Source: a virus
Lineage: Duplodnaviria > Caudoviricetes
Reading direction: 5' to 3' (one strand)
DNA length: 64,000 bases
Virus record (IMG/VR): IMGVR_UViG_3300012007_000009
Span: 1 to 64,000 of that record
The first letter of the stretch is position 1, and each line of letters starts with the position of its first letter. This document shows, one piece after another, positions 3,413-15,700 of this stretch. Both the position numbers and the translations under genes were made by a program. The notes beneath the pieces are model-generated. The model saw nothing but the letters and a program-made list of their open reading frames with translations, ran no database searches and was not told the origin of the DNA.

Positions 3413-5080
3413 CTATCCCAGTAATCCAACGTTGCTTGCCTTGTCCACGGCCATGGCGTTCTCGCGCTGGTAGTAAGTCTTCCTGGATGCCGTGCGGCTT
3501 CCGGTGAAGCTGTTGATTACCAGGTCGAGGTCTTCCTGCGAGTAGGTTTCCTTGCTGCCGTTCTTCACGTAAATCTGGCGGCTGAAGTTCTCTACGTCGG
3601 CCGCGGAAATCTTGGCCTCCACGAGCTTCTTCACGGTTTCGTCGTATACTTCGTCGGGAATGTTGTAACCCGCCTTGCTGCAGTAGCTGCGCACCAGGTG
3701 ACCCATCAGTTCCTCGTCCGGGAACCCGACCTCGATTGTCTCGTCAATTCTCCCGGAGCGTTCCATGATGGACTCGTGGACCTTCAGCGGGTCGTTGATG
3801 GTGGACATGATGATTGTCGGGAACTTGGACTCGCGTACCCTGGCAAAGAAGCTGATTAGGGAGTTGGTCTCCGAGCACTTGCTCTGAATCTGCAAGGAAT
3901 CGAGCTCGTCGAGCAGGATTACCGCCTTCTGCGTCATGTTGATGCAGAACAGAATCCGTTCCAACGTGGTGTCAAGGGACCTGTCCTCGAGCTTGCAGGT
4001 GATAATCATGAAGCCACGCTGGGCCAAGTCGTCCATGATGTGTTCGCAGGTCGACGTCTTGCCGGTACCGAGAGGACCGACGAGCGCGTACGACATGGAC
4101 TGGTTCTTCTCGGCCGCACGGGAACACCATTCGCTAATCTGCTTCATGGTATTGGAGCGGACCCAGAATTCCGAGTCCGCGCGCGGTTCGTTTGGACGCA
4201 CGTAGATTCTGGACGAGTCAACGTAGTAGTGGTACTTGGCCGGGTCGAGCTCGCGATAGATATAGGCCAGGCAGGCCTGCACCGCGTCCTCGTTGGCTAT
4301 GGACGGGTGCTCGGTCACGAAGGCGGCATGCTCGGTCAGAATCTGTCCGCCTATGTACTTGGAGCCGTCCCCGTCGGAAGTCAGTGCGGTGAGCCCGCCT
4401 TCCTTGGTGGCGTTGTCCACGGTGAACTTCTCCATCTTGAGGACGTACAGGGTCTCCACGCTCGGTTCTCCGCCCGGGCTCTTCAGCTTGCGGCAGCGGA
4501 GCAGCACGCACAGCGGGGACGTAATGATGATGTTCCCGGTGGAATTGATTGTCGGGGGATTGCCCTCGATGCCGTCGATTGTGAAGTCGTAGTGGTTTTC
4601 GTCGTCGGTGGAGAACTCGTACGTGGTCTTCACCTTCATCCGGTAGGTAAGGTACATCAGGATGTCCCCCAGCGGAACCGGCCCGGCGCATGCCCCGGAA
4701 TAATGGTCGCATATGGGAATCTCTATGTTGAACCTGTTGGCTATGTCCTTCCAGAACACGATTTCGGCCCTGTTCTCCATCGAGTTCGATGGCTGCACGT
4801 TGGCGTGGATATTGTCAAGCACGTAGTACAGCGCTATGCTGTTCCTGGAGAAGTTGATGAAGTCCTTCAGTGTCTGGTTGGTGGACTTCTCGAACAGGCG
4901 GGACGCAAGGTCGGTCGCCAGCGAGCAGGCCGGCAGGATGCTCTTGAAGCTGGCCGTGCGCACGGTGCGTTTCAGTTTTTTCCAGTCTATTCCCTCGGGG
5001 GTGATGAAGTCGGTAGAGAAGCGGGGTATCTGGTTTCCCAGTTCCTTCAGCAGGTCCAAAAAGTTTGTCGTCTCAGCCAT
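3413..5080 (-). CDS. AAA+ ATPase with uncharacterised N-terminal domain
   Basis: Walker A GPLGTGKT, Walker B ILLDELD, Arg finger ERSGRID. Confidence 0.85.
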   Translation of the reverse strand: MAETTNFLDLLKELGNQIPRFSTDFITPEGIDWKKLKRTVRTASFKSILPACSLATDLASRLFEKSTNQTLKDFINFSRNSIALYYVLDNIHANVQPSNSMENRAEIVFWKDIANRFNIEIPICDHYSGACAGPVPLGDILMYLTYRMKVKTTYEFSTDDENHYDFTIDGIEGNPPTINSTGNIIITSPLCVLLRCRKLKSPGGEPSVETLYVLKMEKFTVDNATKEGGLTALTSDGDGSKYIGGQILTEHAAFVTEHPSIANEDAVQACLAYIYRELDPAKYHYYVDSSRIYVRPNEPRADSEFWVRSNTMKQISEWCSRAAEKNQSMSYALVGPLGTGKTSTCEHIMDDLAQRGFMIITCKLEDRSLDTTLERILFCINMTQKAVILLDELDSLQIQSKCSETNSLISFFARVRESKFPTIIMSTINDPLKVHESIMERSGRIDETIEVGFPDEELMGHLVRSYCSKAGYNIPDEVYDETVKKLVEAKISAADVENFSRQIYVKNGSKETYSQEDLDLVINSFTGSRTASRKTYYQRENAMAVDKASNVGLLG

Positions 5081-6893: not shown

Positions 6894-7451
6894 CTACCTC
6901 ATGAACAATTCGGAATAGGCGTCGGATTGCATCTCCCGGTCGCTCATGTGCCTTTCCATCTGTATGACGGAGTCCATTATCTTGGACCTCTCCATCGCGT
7001 ACCTGTCCTGTCGGTCGTAGTCGGACTGCTTCAGGTTACCCAGCCTGGACATGTCCATGTTGCTGTCCAGGTCGACCAGCTTCACCTTGGCGGCGAGCAG
7101 GTTCTCCGAAATCCTGTCTATGTATACATCCCTGTCCTCCGACTTGTTCCTAGTAAGAATCTTCACTACTTTCCACACCACTGGTGGAAACCAGGCGGCC
7201 AGGTCCGAAATCGTGAACCCGCCGTCCTCCACCACGTCGTGCATGTATGCGATGGCAGTCAGGTTGTCGTCGCCGTACCTCTTGGCGGTCTCCCTGCCCA
7301 CGTACCCGACATGCTCCATGTACTTGTGCCCGCCGCGGTCAATCTGCCCGTCGTGCGCGAACTCCGCGAACTTTATCGCCCTGCTTACAATGTCCAGTCC
7401 GGACGGCACCCCCGTCCTCACGAATTCCTTGATTTCGTCCCTTGAACGCAT
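6894..7451 (-). CDS. HD-domain hydrolase, RelA/SpoT-hydrolase (Mesh1/SAH)-like
   Basis: AHDGQIDRGGHKYMEH, AYMHDVVED, VKLVDLDSN. Confidence 0.85.
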   Translation of the reverse strand: MRSRDEIKEFVRTGVPSGLDIVSRAIKFAEFAHDGQIDRGGHKYMEHVGYVGRETAKRYGDDNLTAIAYMHDVVEDGGFTISDLAAWFPPVVWKVVKILTRNKSEDRDVYIDRISENLLAAKVKLVDLDSNMDMSRLGNLKQSDYDRQDRYAMERSKIMDSVIQMERHMSDREMQSDAYSELFMR

Positions 7452-8796: not shown

Positions 8797-8823
8797 GAAA
8801 AGGCCTCCGATGGGAGGCCTTTC
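8797..8823. terminator. Bidirectional intrinsic terminator
   Basis: AAAAGGCCTCC-GATG-GGAGGCCTTT. Confidence 0.85.
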
Positions 8824-8824
8824 T

Positions 8825-9331
8825 TTATTGTCTCAGTTTGGCTATATCATCACGGGAAAGCAGCCGCTGGTTCCGGGAACCCCTGAATCTCAAAGTAAGG
8901 TCCCTCTGTGCCAGGATGAACGGACCGTCGACCAGCGTGTCCACCGCGTCGAGAATTCCGTCGGTGACTCCCGGGACATGCTTGCGCTTCCCCGGGAGCA
9001 GGTCCTTCTCCAGTACGTAACCCGTAAACATCCACAGTGTCTTCCCGGGAAATTCCCGGGAGAACCTGGTAATTAACGGGAGGAGGGCCTCCTGATTCTC
9101 TGGCTCCAGCGGCTCCCCGCCCAACACGGTAAGACCGGCTATATAGCTGGGGCGGCATGCCTCTATAACCTCGTTTTCCTCGATTGGGGTAAACGGTTGT
9201 CCATAGTCGAAATCCCAGGTATCCTCGTTGAAGCAACCGGGACAATGATTCCTGCACCCGGAAACGAAAAGGGAAACTCTGTTACCCTCTCCGTCTACGA
9301 TGCTCATGTGGTCAATCTTGCCGTAGTTCAT
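8825..9331 (-). CDS. nrdG: Anaerobic ribonucleotide reductase activating enzyme
   Basis: Radical-SAM motif CxxxCxxC (GCRNHCPGCFN), GGEP, VDGPF, FRGSRNQR. Confidence 0.95.
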   Translation of the reverse strand: MNYGKIDHMSIVDGEGNRVSLFVSGCRNHCPGCFNEDTWDFDYGQPFTPIEENEVIEACRPSYIAGLTVLGGEPLEPENQEALLPLITRFSREFPGKTLWMFTGYVLEKDLLPGKRKHVPGVTDGILDAVDTLVDGPFILAQRDLTLRFRGSRNQRLLSRDDIAKLRQ

Positions 9332-11292
9332 TCTTCTTCCTTATATAATGCTATACCCACTTTCTTTGCAAACAATCCACATTTTGTCTTGGGCTCACTA
9401 GTTTCTGGACCAATGAATATATAGTTAGGTGCTTTTACATGTTCCTTGATGATTTTTACCCAATCAAGAAACGAAATATCAGACATCTTATCCGGCGTTC
9501 CCTTCCAATGTTCATATTGCTTACCGAATGGAGGGCATACGACTACGACCTTATCGGTTGTTATTACCTGTGCCGTCACATCCCGCTGCTGCCAGCCATA
9601 CCACTTACAAAAGTATGGATTTATATCATATGCTTCAATAATAGGTTTTAACTTTCGTTTACTGAACCAACGTTTAGTCCCCTCAATAATTCCACCAAAG
9701 CCAGCCATTGGGCAATATACTCCTGCACTAAGGTCAATATTTGCCGATTCTATTATCTTCAGTAAATCGGTATATTTCAACGCGGTTACCTTCGGGGCAA
9801 ACTTTGCCACGGTGAACCGGTTCAGTATAAGTCGACTAAGCGGTACCACATCATTATATAGCTCACGCAATGCGGCAATGTTCCTCCGACAAAAGCTATG
9901 ATACTTATACTGTGCTATACTGCTGGTTGTAACATTTATCAGATTGCGCACTGCATTACGAAATATGTGTTCGTTAGCCCATGCCTCCCGAGGTGATGAA
10001 TGTCCCGGAACATAGCAATCCCATATTGGATGATTTGCAGGCCATTTATCTGTCCCAGGGAATGCCGTTCCGAAGCACTTAGCTATGATGTCATCCTCCG
10101 TAATGCTAACCCCATAAAACACCTTTAATAGACCAAATAGTGTAGTGTCCGTTACAATATGAACATTGTTTGCAAGCATGCATTGATGCTTTGCTTCATA
10201 TATATCATCAAGCGAATGGTCATATGGATTTACCATACACTGATTGACGTCCTTGTTATTAAAAAACTGCATGCCCTTCACTTCATATAATACACCATCT
10301 ATCGAAAAGTCCGGTTCATAACAATGTTCCTTCTCTCTGGCTAGATAAGTAAACCTTACGTCAGGATGCAAAATAGCGTCTTTCCCACATATTCTAGCAA
10401 AGTTATAAAGATTTATTTCATCCAAGCTGTCAAATCCTATACCATCTTGCATATATTTCTTTTTTCTTCGCTTAGCAAACTCGATTGAATGTGAGAAGTG
10501 GTCAACCCCATACTTATTCATCAAAGTTTTCTTTGTCTTTGGCAACTGGAAGCCATTGGCAGTGCCATATTTCTTTCGAGTAGTTTCAATACATTTCTTG
10601 CGACTTTCGGTCGATTGCCAATTATGCTTAACGCCATACCGTTTAAGCATCGTAGCTTCGCGCTTTCGAGCAATTGCTTGCTTTTCTTCCGGGGTAAAAC
10701 TCTGTACTCGTGCAACAGCTTTTTTTCTGTATTCCGGGTTGTTCATAGCATTATGCCGACTGCGCATCTCCGAAGTACACTCCGGTGAGCCACATGTATT
10801 ATGGTACCGAACCCCTTTCCACTTAGCCCGTTGGCCACATATTTCACAGTATTCAACCTTTACACCAAAGTACTTAATATAATATTCTTCCGTGCTTAGT
10901 TGTCCATGCAACTTCTTTAGGTGAGCATTCAGTTTATTCTGTAGCAAAAAACCTTTCCCACAAAACTCGCAATGGTATTTATAGCCTATACTAGGCTTAT
11001 CGATTTTTCTACTTTTTTCCGGTCGGCAGCATTCTTTGCCGTACTTTTCTACCATATGCATATGTTGTAACTTCCGCACACAGGTTGGATTACCACATGT
11101 ATCTCTATATCCAGTATGATTACTGAACCCACATTCGTTACCGCATATCGGACATAATGGATGCGTTCCGGGACCTATATAAGTATCGTAGTAATCCTTG
11201 TACTTTATCTTATGAGTACGCTGAATATGATTGGTCATACCATTTAACCCATATTCCGCTCCGCATATAGCGCATTTGTATATCAACTTCAT
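9328..11292 (-). CDS. Free-standing homing-endonuclease-like protein: Zn fingers + KYG repeats + PD-(D/E)xK nuclease + methyltransferase-like C-terminus
   Basis: CAICG..HIQRTH and CEFCG..HLKKLH; KRYGV/KKYGT/NKYGV repeats; YEPDF..LYEVKG; CPMAGFGG, AYDIN, VCPPF. Strongly AT-rich. Confidence 0.7.
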   Translation of the reverse strand: MKLIYKCAICGAEYGLNGMTNHIQRTHKIKYKDYYDTYIGPGTHPLCPICGNECGFSNHTGYRDTCGNPTCVRKLQHMHMVEKYGKECCRPEKSRKIDKPSIGYKYHCEFCGKGFLLQNKLNAHLKKLHGQLSTEEYYIKYFGVKVEYCEICGQRAKWKGVRYHNTCGSPECTSEMRSRHNAMNNPEYRKKAVARVQSFTPEEKQAIARKREATMLKRYGVKHNWQSTESRKKCIETTRKKYGTANGFQLPKTKKTLMNKYGVDHFSHSIEFAKRRKKKYMQDGIGFDSLDEINLYNFARICGKDAILHPDVRFTYLAREKEHCYEPDFSIDGVLYEVKGMQFFNNKDVNQCMVNPYDHSLDDIYEAKHQCMLANNVHIVTDTTLFGLLKVFYGVSITEDDIIAKCFGTAFPGTDKWPANHPIWDCYVPGHSSPREAWANEHIFRNAVRNLINVTTSSIAQYKYHSFCRRNIAALRELYNDVVPLSRLILNRFTVAKFAPKVTALKYTDLLKIIESANIDLSAGVYCPMAGFGGIIEGTKRWFSKRKLKPIIEAYDINPYFCKWYGWQQRDVTAQVITTDKVVVVCPPFGKQYEHWKGTPDKMSDISFLDWVKIIKEHVKAPNYIFIGPETSEPKTKCGLFAKKVGIALYKEEE

Positions 11293-11305
11293 AGGTTCCT
11301 CGCAT

Positions 11306-11337
11306 AAAAAATGCCGGTACTGTAAGTGCCGGCATTT
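11306..11337 (-). terminator. Intrinsic terminator after nrdD
   Basis: AAATGCCGGTAC/GTGCCGGCATTT stem with a T tract on the minus strand. Confidence 0.7.
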
Positions 11338-11348
11338 ACTAGTAACAA

Positions 11349-13895
11349 CTAGATATTATGTCGGTCCACCAGTTCAGCTAGTTTACCATCACCCCATGAT
11401 TTTAATATAGTTTTTCTTGGAGAACCTGTCAAATAACCGGTGATGCGCCTTACACGAACGAACATATTTTCATCCTTGCAACTACACTTCGGACACTCGT
11501 TATCGATGATGCCGTGGAATCCGCATTCAACACAATCATCCGAATCCATCGTCACCGTGAAATAACCAAGGTTCCCATCGTACATGGCATCAATAGCCGC
11601 CTTCACCGCGACGGTATTCTTAGTCAGGTCGCCATTCAGCTTGTAGTAGAAGATGTGGCCAGCATTGGTCAGTTCATGGAACGGAGCCTCGAGCTTAATC
11701 TTGTTCTCAAGGGAAGTGTCGAGGGAGAAGTCCATCATGTGGCTGTTGGTGTAGTAGCCCTTACCAAACAGGCGGTCCAGGTCTACGTCGGAAAGGCGTT
11801 TGTCCTTGGCGGCCAGTATAGGCTTCCCGTCCTCGCCGGTGAGTACCGTCGCGAACTTGTTCTTGTCGATGGTAGCGAACCTTCCGGCAACTGCTTCGGC
11901 CGGCGTAGCGAACGTACTCCAGTTGAGGTGAGTCTCCTTCTGGACAGCATCGGTAAATTCCCTTATATGCTTCACGATTGATATGGAAAAATCGTCAACA
12001 TCGTGGTCGATGCCGAATGTTTTGCCGGTAATCAGCTTGACCGTCTCGGCAATACCGACATATCCTATACTCAATGTAGACTGCTTGAGAACATCAACAA
12101 TCTTATCACTCATCTTGTGCGGAGCATCGTCAGAAGTAAGGTACAGTCCCTGCTGCATGGTGAACGGGAACTTCTCGTATGTCTTTTCACAGATGAGCCT
12201 GAATCGTTCAAGGAGGCTTCCCTTGGCGTCGTCGAGCATACCGTCGAGCTTCTCGAAGAACAGTGCCTTTCGCTTCTCGATATCGCTTTCGGCGATGTGG
12301 GATTCGATGGCAAGACGCGGAAGATTGATTGTATGGAAAGCGAAGTTTCCTCTTGCCGTAGTCTGCTGCGGACCGTTGATGTTGCCGATGACACGGGTAC
12401 GGCATCCCATTGTAGAGATGGTAGAGTTAGGAATCAGCTTGCGAAGATGCAACTTACCGCCCTTGTACTCGGTAACTTCCCAGAAGTCACCGGGAGCCAC
12501 CTCGTATTCCCACTCGGTATATTCGGTAGGTTCAACCGAAGTCAAGTACGCCGTCTCGTTTGTACCGCGTTTCTTGAATGTCAAGCCGGTATCGGTAGAA
12601 AATTCCACAACCTGTTCATTATATCTCACATATGGCTTGTTGAAAGTGGAATCAACTGAGACAAAGTTCGGGTAGAACCTGCGGGCCAGGCAGTCGATTG
12701 CCTGTAGGTACAAGTCGTAGTTCGGGTCGGTCTCGTTCTTGGTGTAACCCTTCATGAGCTTAAAAATCAATATCGGGAAGATGGCAGTCAGCCCGTCGCC
12801 CATTCCCTCGTACTGGGCCCTCATGATATTCTTGCTTACCATACGGCCGCAGTTGGACGTATCAAGTCCGAAGTTCAATGACGAAAACGGAACCTGGTTT
12901 CCGGAACGGCTCTGCAATGAGTTCAGGTTATGAACCAGGGCCTCCATTGCCTGATGGGTGTCATCGTCGGTCGCATCCAGTGCATTCTTCACGCATACGC
13001 AGGGGAACATTTCGCAAAGGTAACCTTCCGGCTGGTTCATGGAGATTGCCTGTAGCTTCTTGACCAGTTCCTTCTTCACCTTCTTGAAGTCGCCTGCCCA
13101 TTCGGCCATCTTCGGGTCACCCGTGTAGTTGGCGAAGCGATTCAATTCCCTAGCCAGATTCTTCCTGAAGGAGATGTCGACGAACGGCGCAAGGTCGAAG
13201 TCGAAGTTGTCGCATGCGATGCCGCCATACTGCTGGTTAGACTGCAGCTGGAGAATAACAGCCGTCAAAGCGGCTGCCGACTGGATGCTCCCGGCTGGAC
13301 GCTGGAAACCTGTACCAGAATCAAACCCGCTTTTCAGCAGCTTGCCAACGGGGGCGAAGAGACAGTTGAACGTCAGGTTGTACATGTTCAGGTCGTGTAT
13401 GTGGAGATACCCGTCCTTGTGTTCCTTTGCGTACTTCCTGCTTACGTTGTTGAGCAGGTTGTACATCTTGTTCGTCTCGGAAGCAATCTTTGAGTAGGTG
13501 CCGGCCGGAGTAGCCCCGGATTCGTTGGCGTTGTCCCTAAGGATATTCGAGCTCTTCAATTCGGACTCGGTAATCTCCTTGATTGTCTTGATAATCTCGG
13601 ATTCGTTGGTCCTGTCGCGGTCACGGTCGTGACGGAACTCGATGAAGGCCCTCGCCGTGTCCTTGAACCCCCAGTCCATGAGGGTGTTCTCGATTGTGTC
13701 CTGAATCTTGTTTACGTGTACGGACTTGGCCCCGTTCGCCGAGATGGTATCGACCACCTTTCCTACCAGTTCATCAAGTTGTTCGTCAGTGTATTTCTCC
13801 TTGCTGTCCTTGAAAGCCGCCCTGATGGCGTCGTATATGTGCTTCTGGTCGAAATTCTTCCTTCTCTTGTCCTTCTTCGTAACGTAGGTAAGCAT
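11349..13895 (-). CDS. nrdD: Class III (anaerobic) ribonucleoside-triphosphate reductase
   Basis: N-terminal ATP cone, HIHD, FNC, MGCRTR, ATPAE, YYTNSH, Zn ribbon, glycyl radical motif RITGYL. Confidence 0.97.
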   Translation of the reverse strand: MLTYVTKKDKRRKNFDQKHIYDAIRAAFKDSKEKYTDEQLDELVGKVVDTISANGAKSVHVNKIQDTIENTLMDWGFKDTARAFIEFRHDRDRDRTNESEIIKTIKEITESELKSSNILRDNANESGATPAGTYSKIASETNKMYNLLNNVSRKYAKEHKDGYLHIHDLNMYNLTFNCLFAPVGKLLKSGFDSGTGFQRPAGSIQSAAALTAVILQLQSNQQYGGIACDNFDFDLAPFVDISFRKNLARELNRFANYTGDPKMAEWAGDFKKVKKELVKKLQAISMNQPEGYLCEMFPCVCVKNALDATDDDTHQAMEALVHNLNSLQSRSGNQVPFSSLNFGLDTSNCGRMVSKNIMRAQYEGMGDGLTAIFPILIFKLMKGYTKNETDPNYDLYLQAIDCLARRFYPNFVSVDSTFNKPYVRYNEQVVEFSTDTGLTFKKRGTNETAYLTSVEPTEYTEWEYEVAPGDFWEVTEYKGGKLHLRKLIPNSTISTMGCRTRVIGNINGPQQTTARGNFAFHTINLPRLAIESHIAESDIEKRKALFFEKLDGMLDDAKGSLLERFRLICEKTYEKFPFTMQQGLYLTSDDAPHKMSDKIVDVLKQSTLSIGYVGIAETVKLITGKTFGIDHDVDDFSISIVKHIREFTDAVQKETHLNWSTFATPAEAVAGRFATIDKNKFATVLTGEDGKPILAAKDKRLSDVDLDRLFGKGYYTNSHMMDFSLDTSLENKIKLEAPFHELTNAGHIFYYKLNGDLTKNTVAVKAAIDAMYDGNLGYFTVTMDSDDCVECGFHGIIDNECPKCSCKDENMFVRVRRITGYLTGSPRKTILKSWGDGKLAELVDRHNI

Positions 13896-14050: not shown

Positions 14051-15700
14051 TTACATCGTAATATCATCCTCATGATTTTTCGATGCAGGCGAAGGCGAGT
14101 TTATTGGTTTTCCCGGGGAAGTTTCCCTGACCGAAGGCGGTGGTCCGTCCACTATGTGCCCGTCGTCCCTGGCCACCATCCTTGCGTACTTTATCGTCGA
14201 TATCCTCCTGGATACCATCTCCCGGAAAGTCCCCACATCTCCCGTGCCTTCCGAGTACCTTACCATGTCGCCGACCACGCCTGAGATGTAGGCGTGGGTA
14301 AGGTGAGCCTTGAACACCAGCTCGCAGGCCTCGGCGAACTCGGGGTTGCTTGCGTCGACCCAGTCGGGCTTCGCCTTTCCGAGGTGCCTGTACGACTGTT
14401 CAACGACGTCGCACACCCCCTCGACAGTATCCGGGTTCTTCACGTAGATGATGTCGTCTATTCTCCCGGGGCGAAGCTTGATTGTGCTGTGGAGCTTCTG
14501 CGGTTCGTTGATGATGAGGATGGTTATTCCCCTATACTTGGGGGAGTTTGTCTCGTCTATGTAGTTGATGAACGCACCGGTAAGGTCGTTCTTGGTTGCA
14601 AAGTCGTTGCCGTCGAAGTCGTCGAACACGAAGAACGAGCCCGGGAACATGTTCAGCACCCTGAACACGTTGTCCATCCCGCGACGGTCGCAGATTGAAT
14701 CCGGGGAAATCCAGAACACCGGTACGTCGGTGAAGTCCATGAGGAGCCTGTTCACGGAAATGGTCTTGCCGGTACCCTGGTCGCCCTGCACGATGTATCC
14801 CCTGCGGCCCTTCGTATCGAGAACCTTCCGGATGAATGCGGATTCCGACGCCATGGTCCTCAGGGGTTTCCCGGTAGCGTCGTACATGTCGAAGTTCCTT
14901 ACCTCGAAGTCCACGTTTACCCTTGGCTCGACATACAGCGTGCCGCCCTTAATCCTGACTATGTTCTTCGTTATGTCTATACGGTCGATGTACATCCCGT
15001 AAATTATCGATGGAATCGCCCACAGCAGGTCCATGTTGCACTCGGTGCCGTGCATGCCGTAGTTCATGTAGGAGTACCCGTCCTCGGAAATCCGGTCTCC
15101 CTTGTGCTTGGAATCGTAGTAGCCGACCTCGAAGCCGACCCTGTACTTGCTCCCTTCCCACGACACTTCCGCGTCTACCATGAACACTATCGGTTCGTTG
15201 TCTGGAGTGCCGTTCTGTTCCTCCTGGCGTTGAACCTTGATGAAACGGAAGCCGTACTTGGCCTGTTCCTTCTCGGTAAGCCCGAGGAACGTCTCGCATA
15301 TGCTAGCCGTCGCCTCGATGGAGTCCGTCATCAGCTCGATACCGCGCCCCTTTCCCATGAAGGCGGCAAGCTCGTCGAACGGGCTATGTATCTCGTGCCG
15401 CGCGGCGATGAATACGTTGTTCGCTACGGTGGTGGCCCTTACCAGGCCGAAGCCGGTCTCCAGCAATCCAAGGTATGCGTGCAGGACCCTGTTGTCGGTG
15501 TTCGCCCTCACCAGTTCGGCTATCGTCGAGAGGAACCCGCCGGCCGCGTTGACCAGCTTCTCCGAGTTCGACTTCACCACGTTCTTCAGGTAGGCCAGCT
15601 TCTCCCTGGCCTTCATGGTTTTCCACGTCTCGGCGTCAATCTCTATCTTGACGAGAAGGTCGGAAAGGCCCCCGTCGTTGCTGTTGGTATTGTCGGCCAT
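14051..15700 (-). CDS. AAA+ ATPase, paralog of 3413..5080
   Basis: GDQGTGKT, FVFDDFD, LRPGRID. Confidence 0.85.
   Translation of the reverse strand: MADNTNSNDGGLSDLLVKIEIDAETWKTMKAREKLAYLKNVVKSNSEKLVNAAGGFLSTIAELVRANTDNRVLHAYLGLLETGFGLVRATTVANNVFIAARHEIHSPFDELAAFMGKGRGIELMTDSIEATASICETFLGLTEKEQAKYGFRFIKVQRQEEQNGTPDNEPIVFMVDAEVSWEGSKYRVGFEVGYYDSKHKGDRISEDGYSYMNYGMHGTECNMDLLWAIPSIIYGMYIDRIDITKNIVRIKGGTLYVEPRVNVDFEVRNFDMYDATGKPLRTMASESAFIRKVLDTKGRRGYIVQGDQGTGKTISVNRLLMDFTDVPVFWISPDSICDRRGMDNVFRVLNMFPGSFFVFDDFDGNDFATKNDLTGAFINYIDETNSPKYRGITILIINEPQKLHSTIKLRPGRIDDIIYVKNPDTVEGVCDVVEQSYRHLGKAKPDWVDASNPEFAEACELVFKAHLTHAYISGVVGDMVRYSEGTGDVGTFREMVSRRISTIKYARMVARDDGHIVDGPPPSVRETSPGKPINSPSPASKNHEDDITM

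Follow-up and report, generated by a model that had tools for sequence, protein, structure and literature searches.

Architecture of an insert between nrdD and nrdG

We analysed a 64,000-nucleotide stretch of DNA (the window; positions 1 to 64,000 of IMG/VR record IMGVR_UViG_3300012007_000009) from an uncultured, T4-like phage. Directly after nrdD and before nrdG lies an insert, a single open reading frame (ORF) whose predicted product joins two zinc modules, a repeat region and a nuclease core to a methyltransferase (MTase)-like module. The insert is organized as follows:

9328..11292, minus strand: whole ORF, 654 amino acids (aa) plus stop; zinc modules, KYG repeats, PD-(D/E)xK core and MTase-like module
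11074..11280, minus strand: zinc module 1, residues 5-73; C2H2 ligands C7, C10, H22 and H27 plus Cys4 ligands C47, C50, C66 and C71
10771..10977, minus strand: zinc module 2, residues 106-174; C2H2 ligands C108, C111, H124 and H129 plus Cys4 ligands C149, C152, C167 and C172
10447..10692, minus strand: KYG repeats, residues 201-282; Pfam DUF7487, 2.1e-9
10108..10446, minus strand: PD-(D/E)xK nuclease core, residues 283-395; FDSxxE292, P327-D328-F329, E337-x-K339 and K368
9733..10107, minus strand: helical subdomain of the MTase-like module, residues 396-520; includes FPGTxKWPxxHPIW and NRFTxAKxAPKVTAL
9331..9732, minus strand: Rossmann core of the MTase-like module, residues 521-654; motif I CPMAGFGG, motif II EAYD556, motif III RD571 and motif IV C586-PPF

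The ORF contains no internal stops. Its GC content was 0.38-0.43 along its length versus 0.50-0.59 in the flanks, and 0.404 at the gene level versus 0.508 for nrdD and 0.550 for nrdG. An earlier sequence-only reading of the window had described an AT-rich, 654-residue ORF within an nrdD-nrdG operon; the coordinates, the GC contrast and the Pfam assignments of the neighbours all agree with that description. Two motifs highlighted in that reading were also placed correctly: YEPDF...YEVKG corresponds to residues 325-340 (10273-10320) and CPMAGFGG to residues 527-534 (9691-9714). AYDIN and VCPPF correspond to residues 554-558 and 585-589, respectively.

The two C2H2+Cys4 modules proposed from the sequence are real: all 16 zinc ligands were invariant in 21 full-length relatives that are 36-88% identical over residues 1-400. 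Module 1, which is presumed to bind DNA, recurs in a split version of the architecture (locus L075, see below), and module 2 weakly matches Pfam zf-C2H2_4. The proposed KYG repeats were likewise confirmed. They fall within Pfam DUF7487 (38 bits versus a cut-off of 27, covering profile positions 16-101 of 220) and match PHROG 3339 and 12131, both labelled 'homing endonuclease'. A literature search on DUF7487 returned no papers.

In the nuclease core, F287-D288-S289, E292, P327-D328-F329, K339 and K368 were invariant in the 21 relatives, and position 337 was either Glu or Asp. The E...PD...(D/E)xK signature also held in a wider alignment of 27 sequences. An AlphaFold (AF2) model of residues 262-400 had a predicted local distance difference test (pLDDT) score of 88.9, and its structural matches were all of the restriction-endonuclease fold, with top Z scores of 6.7-5. 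The best match was VRR-NUC (Z 6.7, root-mean-square deviation (rmsd) 3.1, 80 aligned residues); Vsr matched at Z 6.2, and Hjc, Bax1 and TnsA were also retrieved. As these Z scores are modest, the assignment leans on the fold and the conserved E...PD...ExK motifs together. On this basis, the core is predicted to have an endonuclease fold of a known type, and its catalytic motifs are intact. A 'Tlr8p/PBCV-like' PD-(D/E)xK group was considered for the KYG/nuclease region and dropped, as the literature places Tlr8p in the GIY-YIG group (PMC1564403).

Mobility of the insert at the nrdD 3' end

The distribution of the insert was evaluated in 63 IMG/VR loci related through nrdD. The full insert was present in 17 of 56 loci with a related nrdD, and 15 were empty, the junction being intact and nrdG starting 2-68 nt after nrdD. 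Mapped on the nrdD tree, carriage requires at least 8 changes of state (gain or loss). Loci with near-identical nrdD differed in carriage: L036 carries the insert and L043 does not, L006 and L025 carry it and L016 does not, and L005 carries it and L040 does not. With 89-50% identity to the insert, its close homologues are without exception located between nrdD and nrdG. This shared position first suggested a fixed gene, which the empty junctions among the nrdD-related loci contradicted.

Lateral exchange was evident from the number of synonymous substitutions per synonymous site (dS). For nrdD, the insert and nrdG, respectively, dS was 0.92, 0.105 and 1.51 between L031 and L036, and 1.25, 0.465 and 1.22 between the window and L002. 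As dS of the insert was far below that of both flanks, the insert was exchanged after the backbones diverged. The GC content of the insert was 0.32-0.44 in every host.

The insert fills exactly the interval from the nrdD stop codon to the next gene. In L029, nrdG is preceded by two unrelated genes, yet the insert still follows nrdD. The location of the insert is thus linked to the 3' end of nrdD. In the window, the junction comprises the following:

11349-13895: nrdD; Pfam NRDD 3.7e-147, plus ATP-cone and Gly_radical
11352..11441, minus strand: last 30 nrdD codons, synonymously recoded and AT-rich; candidate target or co-conversion tract
11306..11335, minus strand: hairpin plus T5; the hairpin (11335-11311; 7 bp, a mismatch, 2 bp, loop TTACA) directly follows the nrdD stop codon (TAG)
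11297-11300, minus strand: ribosome-binding site AGGA, between the hairpin and the insert ATG at 11292
9328..9331, minus strand: ATGA overlap of the insert stop codon, TGA, with the nrdG start codon, ATG
8825-9331: nrdG; Pfam Fer4_12 1.4e-44

The hairpin had a minimum free energy of -16.7 kcal/mol (z -2.5), and a comparable hairpin followed by a T-run was found in carriers L005, L006, L025 and L036. At empty sites, the nrdD stop codon overlaps the nrdG start codon as a TAATG-type junction in place of the ATGA of the insert.

An AT-recoded patch at the 3' end of nrdD was found in carriers only. In the window, the GC content at third codon positions (GC3) of nrdD was 0.23 in the last 30 codons versus 0.70 in the remainder. 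The mean GC3 shift in these codons was -0.25 in carriers and -0.02 at empty sites (p = 5e-4); the same contrast was seen within the near-identical pairs. A single codon marker (AAT/AAC at Asn847, GAT/GAC at Asp836) did not cleanly separate carriers from empty sites, and the 30-codon GC3 test was used instead. By analogy with the free-standing endonucleases of T4, the recoded flank has the look of co-conversion or target-site immunity.

At the same junction, L039 and L055 encode relatives of 395 aa and 370 aa, respectively. Both share the nuclease core and have KYG repeats and a zinc module, but they have no MTase module and stop where it would start. Overall, the insert appears to possess every testable hallmark of a free-standing homing endonuclease: a predicted endonuclease fold, an optional allele, lateral spread and flank polymorphism. 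The patchy carriage, lateral transfer and recoded flank bear out the sequence-only reading, which had proposed a homing-type mobile element. That reading had also named fixation in all relatives as evidence against its proposal; at the nrdD-nrdG junction, the gene is absent from some.

The insert was intact in 16 of the 17 carriers. The sole disrupted copy (L060, 8756-10713) has a frameshift and 8 downstream stops, and reflects either decay of the element or a fault in the assembly.

Other occupants were also seen in this region. In a low-GC clade (L014, 7512-7829; L022, 7548-8491; L029, 4549-5489), other genes lie between nrdD and nrdG. These junction inserts, of ~0.36 kb and ~1 kb, encode a PQ-loop-like membrane protein of 97-105 aa (motif LPQVIK..K.KSTGDIS), with or without a 217-aa protein. 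Neither protein is an endonuclease, and the junction can thus also be occupied by genes other than homing elements. In L059-L061, L064 (5001-8703) and L054 (5001-8756), nrdD spans ~3.7 kb and matches in two pieces with a break near residue 498, which suggests an intein or intron as a second mobile element in the same gene.

The methyltransferase-like module

The C-terminal module (residues 396-654, ~260 aa) is the best-conserved part of the family, with 45-50% identity even between proteins that can no longer be aligned at their N-termini. In 40 diverse copies, the motifs NRFTxAKxAPKVTAL, PMAGFGG, EAYDxN, RD, CPPFG...E..W, GP(E) and LF were kept, invariant or nearly so and far above chance. 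PMAGFGG, the glycine-rich loop of motif I, and EAYD, with the acidic residue that ends strand 2, showed no variation. The Cys of motif IV was invariant in 40 close relatives; the first position thus departs from the (D/N/S)PP(Y/F/W) consensus. The module ends 65 residues past motif IV, at the same endpoint in all relatives, and a C-terminal target recognition domain (TRD) was not found. Finally, omega was 0.03-0.22 in all five segments of the protein, the MTase core included. This purifying selection indicates that the module is functional and in use.

A model of the module had a pLDDT of 88.3 and a predicted template modelling score of 0.81. Its matches in the PDB were exclusively class I S-adenosylmethionine (SAM)-dependent MTases, mostly amino-MTases, with ~50 MTases at Z 9.5-7.7 in an exhaustive alignment. 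Specifically, Z scores were 9.5 for the RsmD-like protein 1ws6, 9.4 for PH1948, 9.3 for TGS1, 9.1 for METTL5, 8.7 for M.BseCI, 8.2 for HsdM, 8.1 for BpuSI, 7.9 for MmeI and 7.8 for M.TaqI; KsgA/Erm and Trm11/14 were also matched. Nearly all of these structural matches are amino-MTases with a (D/N/S)PP(Y/F/W) motif IV. The best Foldseek matches were HsdM subunits, CamA and M.BseCI. In BFVD, the best matches were viral DNA MTases (HsdM-type, N4-cytosine (N4C)-specific and Eco57I-type; E 3e-5 to 1e-3), in alignments that span ~250 columns and include the helical subdomain.

Sequence profiles pointed to the same enzymes. A whole-library profile search with the module yielded 201 representatives. 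In the distant ones, motif I reads DPFxGFxGR and motif IV reads TCPPY or, in one subgroup, TSPPW. In the wider family, 27 of 40 members matched Pfam N6_N4_Mtase. Searched against PDB sequences, a profile that included the module of the window retrieved 8s9n, an N4C MTase (1.4e-7), M.MboIIA (6.6e-6), Trm11 (1.5e-5) and TGS1 (1e-4). In the 8s9n match, TCPPYGD aligns on TSPPYNK and DPFSGFSGR on DPFAGSGTT.

From these profiles and the predicted fold, the module is a true homologue of amino-MTases, with its motifs in a gamma-like order (I, II, III, IV). The methyltransferase resemblance that had been noted thus extends to a Rossmann-like, seven-strand class I MTase fold and to profile homology with DNA N4C/N6-adenine and TGS1/Trm11-type MTases. 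The Foldseek check suggested at the time, in which the lack of a Rossmann MTase fold would have spoken against the idea, recovered that fold. The suggestion that CPPF marks an inactive domain fared less well: the Cys is invariant in the close family, more distant relatives have CPPY or SPPW, and purifying selection is strong. The motif IV Cys is a conserved, Ser-like trait of the family rather than a lesion.

Relatives and module arrangements

In viral clusters, the same fold occurs fused to LAGLIDADG and DUF723 proteins as well as free-standing, the stand-alone forms being 270-340 aa long. An endonuclease-type N-terminus was recognisable in 167 of 215 module proteins of at least 400 aa, a biased set. 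In L075 (3407-5219), a 338-aa zinc/KYG/nuclease ORF overlaps a 270-aa MTase-like ORF by 17 nt, and this split pair is located downstream of the phage RNA polymerase beta/beta' genes. One 'stand-alone' copy of the module is the second ORF of this pair. More distant members of the family also neighbour conserved genes, following either gp23 directly or phage RNA polymerase genes.

The C-terminal module had no matches in 50,697 deposited phage genomes, even at E <= 1, and a tblastn search of 50,697 phage records with the whole protein returned a single weak N-terminal match. A blastn search with the locus returned nothing useful. A stand-alone module, P0122 (L076, 119-1012), translates only when TAG is read as Gln, and some carriers of the family thus appear to be stop-codon-recoded phages.

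Comparison with known systems

In its behaviour, the insert resembles the free-standing homing endonucleases of T4-like phages. The nrdG/nrdD junction is where T4 mobC resides, and both genes are known targets of seg and mob endonucleases (PMC2988022). Like mobC, at whose very junction it lies, MobE (nrdA/nrdB) and the Seg proteins, the insert is an intergenic cassette next to a highly conserved gene. It also shares with them patchy carriage, lateral transfer, a recoded or co-converted flank and a hairpin 5' of the ORF (PMC2988022). The T4 mob and seg enzymes differ in that they use HNH or GIY-YIG catalysis, whereas the insert is predicted to combine a PD-(D/E)xK core with C2H2+Cys4 and KYG DNA binding, and none has its 260-aa MTase-like module. 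DUF7487 putative homing endonucleases of cultured phages, such as F-LimVIII of Dickeya phage LIMEstone1, share the KYG-repeat region.

Two other homing endonucleases are of the same fold class as the nuclease core: the Vsr-like I-Bth0305I (3r3p; catalytic domain, Z 6.2, rmsd 2.9, 81 aligned residues) and, more weakly, I-Ssp6803I (2ost; Z 3.7). However, they have no detectable sequence similarity to the insert, are intron-encoded or otherwise organised, and lack an MTase domain.

The layout of the protein recalls the type IIG/IIL restriction enzymes (MmeI, 5hr4; BpuSI, 3s1s; Eco57I type), in which a PD-(D/E)xK nuclease is likewise joined through a helical linker to a gamma-order MTase in a single chain. 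Enzymes of this type were among the structural matches (Z 7.9-8.1), and an Eco57I-type protein was among the BFVD matches. In contrast to these enzymes, the insert has no C-terminal TRD, recognition presumably being N-terminal, and its motif IV is CPPF rather than NPPY/F; it was therefore not classed as type IIG/IIL. Moreover, type IIG/IIL enzymes are cellular defence genes whereas the insert is a phage-borne mobile cassette.

With the DNA amino-MTases (PF01555; 8s9n; M.MboIIA, 1g60) and the N2-guanine RNA MTases TGS1 and Trm11, the module shares profile homology, motif I, an acidic motif II and a motif IV of the form xPP(Y/F/W). TGS1 and Trm11 are co-linear with the module, whereas relative to the beta-class PF01555 enzymes it is circularly permuted. 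Unlike all of these, it has Cys for D/N/S, a KIAPKV(T/S) motif and a conserved helical subdomain of its own. Literature searches on endonuclease-methyltransferase fusions in phages did not find this architecture described, in line with the sequence-only reading, whose author did not know it as a described system.

Interpretation of the insert

The insert is probably a free-standing homing-endonuclease-type mobile gene that follows the nrdD stop codon in a clade of uncultured T4-like phages and is fused to an amino-MTase homologue. This interpretation builds on the domain identities, homology, mobility, selection and recoded flank established above; the cleavage site, SAM binding, methyl transfer and the contribution of the module are what we infer from there. 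In the proposed mechanism, the tandem zinc modules and KYG repeats would bind a long site in the conserved nrdD 3' end of element-free genomes, and the PD-(D/E)xK core would cut at that site. Recombinational repair from a co-infecting carrier would copy in the cassette of hairpin, ribosome-binding site and ORF. A short AT-rich recoded stretch of nrdD would be copied along, making the carrier allele a poor target. The MTase-like module most likely binds SAM and acts on DNA.

Several observations weigh against this interpretation. The Z scores of the nuclease fold are below 7, a range rated as common by the alignment tool, and the Foldseek E-values of the MTase module against the PDB are only ~1e-3. 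A profile of the close family found nothing meaningful among PDB sequences (CENP-S at E 1.5). The module has no match in Pfam or NCBIfam, and the sole Pfam family above cut-off in the whole protein is DUF7487. As the close family has no such match of its own, its sequence link to MTases passes through the more distant relatives. We know of no characterised amino-MTase with Cys in motif IV. Further, the 30-codon GC3 test is not phylogenetically independent, and carriage at one site down to 50% identity also allows for long vertical persistence between transfers.

We consider it unlikely that the insert is a single-chain, restriction-modification-like selfish unit whose module methylates its own recognition site on carrier or repaired DNA, preventing self-cleavage. 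The order of nuclease, helical linker and gamma-like MTase does recall MmeI and BpuSI, both structural matches, and the module is conserved, under selection and found with other nuclease classes in the LAGLIDADG and DUF723 fusions. A DNA-binding region common to nuclease and MTase would also direct both activities to the same site. However, the recoded nrdD 3' end of carriers represents the classical way to gain immunity by sequence and suffices for it, and the nuclease-only relatives of 395 and 370 aa occupy the same junction without the module. Self-protection by methylation is thus not required; as a function it is possible, but unproven and weakened. In addition, a module that is 45-50% identical across different sites (nrdD, gp23) cannot itself read a long target. 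It seems similarly unlikely that the module transfers no methyl group and acts as a SAM-sensing or base-flipping DNA clamp that activates or positions the nuclease. Such a role would fit the short segment of 65 residues past motif IV, with no TRD, and the Cys for D/N/S, which may weaken activation of the amino group. It would also fit the SAM-dependent activation of cleavage in type IIG enzymes, as described for Tth111II (PMC3899748). Nevertheless, hundreds of diverged sequences show no variation in the full set of catalytic-type motifs, including the aromatic residue of PPF/Y, and the canonical SPPW is retained in some relatives. Such conservation exceeds the needs of cofactor binding alone.

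Less likely again is that the module is beneficial cargo, an orphan DNA MTase of short or relaxed specificity that shields the phage from host restriction and so favours retention of the element. Orphan MTases are common in phages, as illustrated by a PF01555 gene near the locus in L006. Stand-alone forms of the module occur, and the fact that it is highly conserved at different insertion sites suggests an activity that does not depend on the site. Yet 167 of 215 of the longer members in the biased set have endonuclease-type N-termini, a split endonuclease-MTase pair accounts for at least one 'stand-alone' form, and close relatives lack the element. The disfavoured possibility of a domesticated, vertically inherited and immobile gene, perhaps a regulator of the nrd operon or a repair factor, is very improbable. 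The position of the insert is constant among relatives that are 89-42% identical, it is under strong purifying selection, and its stop codon overlaps the nrdG start; but carriage requires at least 8 changes, near-identical backbones occur with and without it, its dS was 9-14 times below that of the flanks in one pair, and its foreign GC content persists.

We also considered a broader proposal, which is doubtful: that phages hold a large undescribed class in which homing endonucleases of unrelated folds (PD-(D/E)xK, LAGLIDADG, DUF723-linked) are coupled to one dedicated (C/S)PP(F/Y/W) DNA MTase. This MTase would mark the homing site or the carrier genome and thereby control who is cut. If true, such an epigenetic-immunity class would be an evolutionary link between homing endonucleases and restriction-modification systems.

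The classic selfish DNA-cutting elements are of two kinds, homing endonucleases and restriction-modification systems, which are usually taken to spare their own DNA by sequence polymorphism and methylation, respectively. Here, a demonstrably mobile homing-type gene carries a conserved, selected MTase homologue in a single-chain, type IIG-like layout. If the module methylates DNA, the insert would represent a homing element that uses epigenetic marking, and would provide a compact scaffold in which a nuclease, a methyltransferase and zinc-finger-type targeting are combined as modules. Without such activity, the invariance of Cys-Pro-Pro-Phe would point to novel chemistry or to an MTase fold put to regulatory use. 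The substrates for a direct test are defined by the natural pairs of carrier and non-carrier genomes.

Other features of the nrd region

Directly 3' of nrdG, the window contains a 10-bp GC-rich inverted repeat (8799-8822). It is terminator-like on the plus strand, and the palindrome could serve either strand. The nrd region is flanked by two paralogues of ~550 aa with a GTGKT Walker A motif (3413-5080 and 14051-15700, both on the minus strand), whose counterparts in relatives match Pfam AAA. Finally, a 185-aa protein is encoded at 6894-7451 on the minus strand. Its counterparts in relatives match Pfam HD_4, a RelA/SpoT-type HD hydrolase family, and it may be a phage (p)ppGpp hydrolase.

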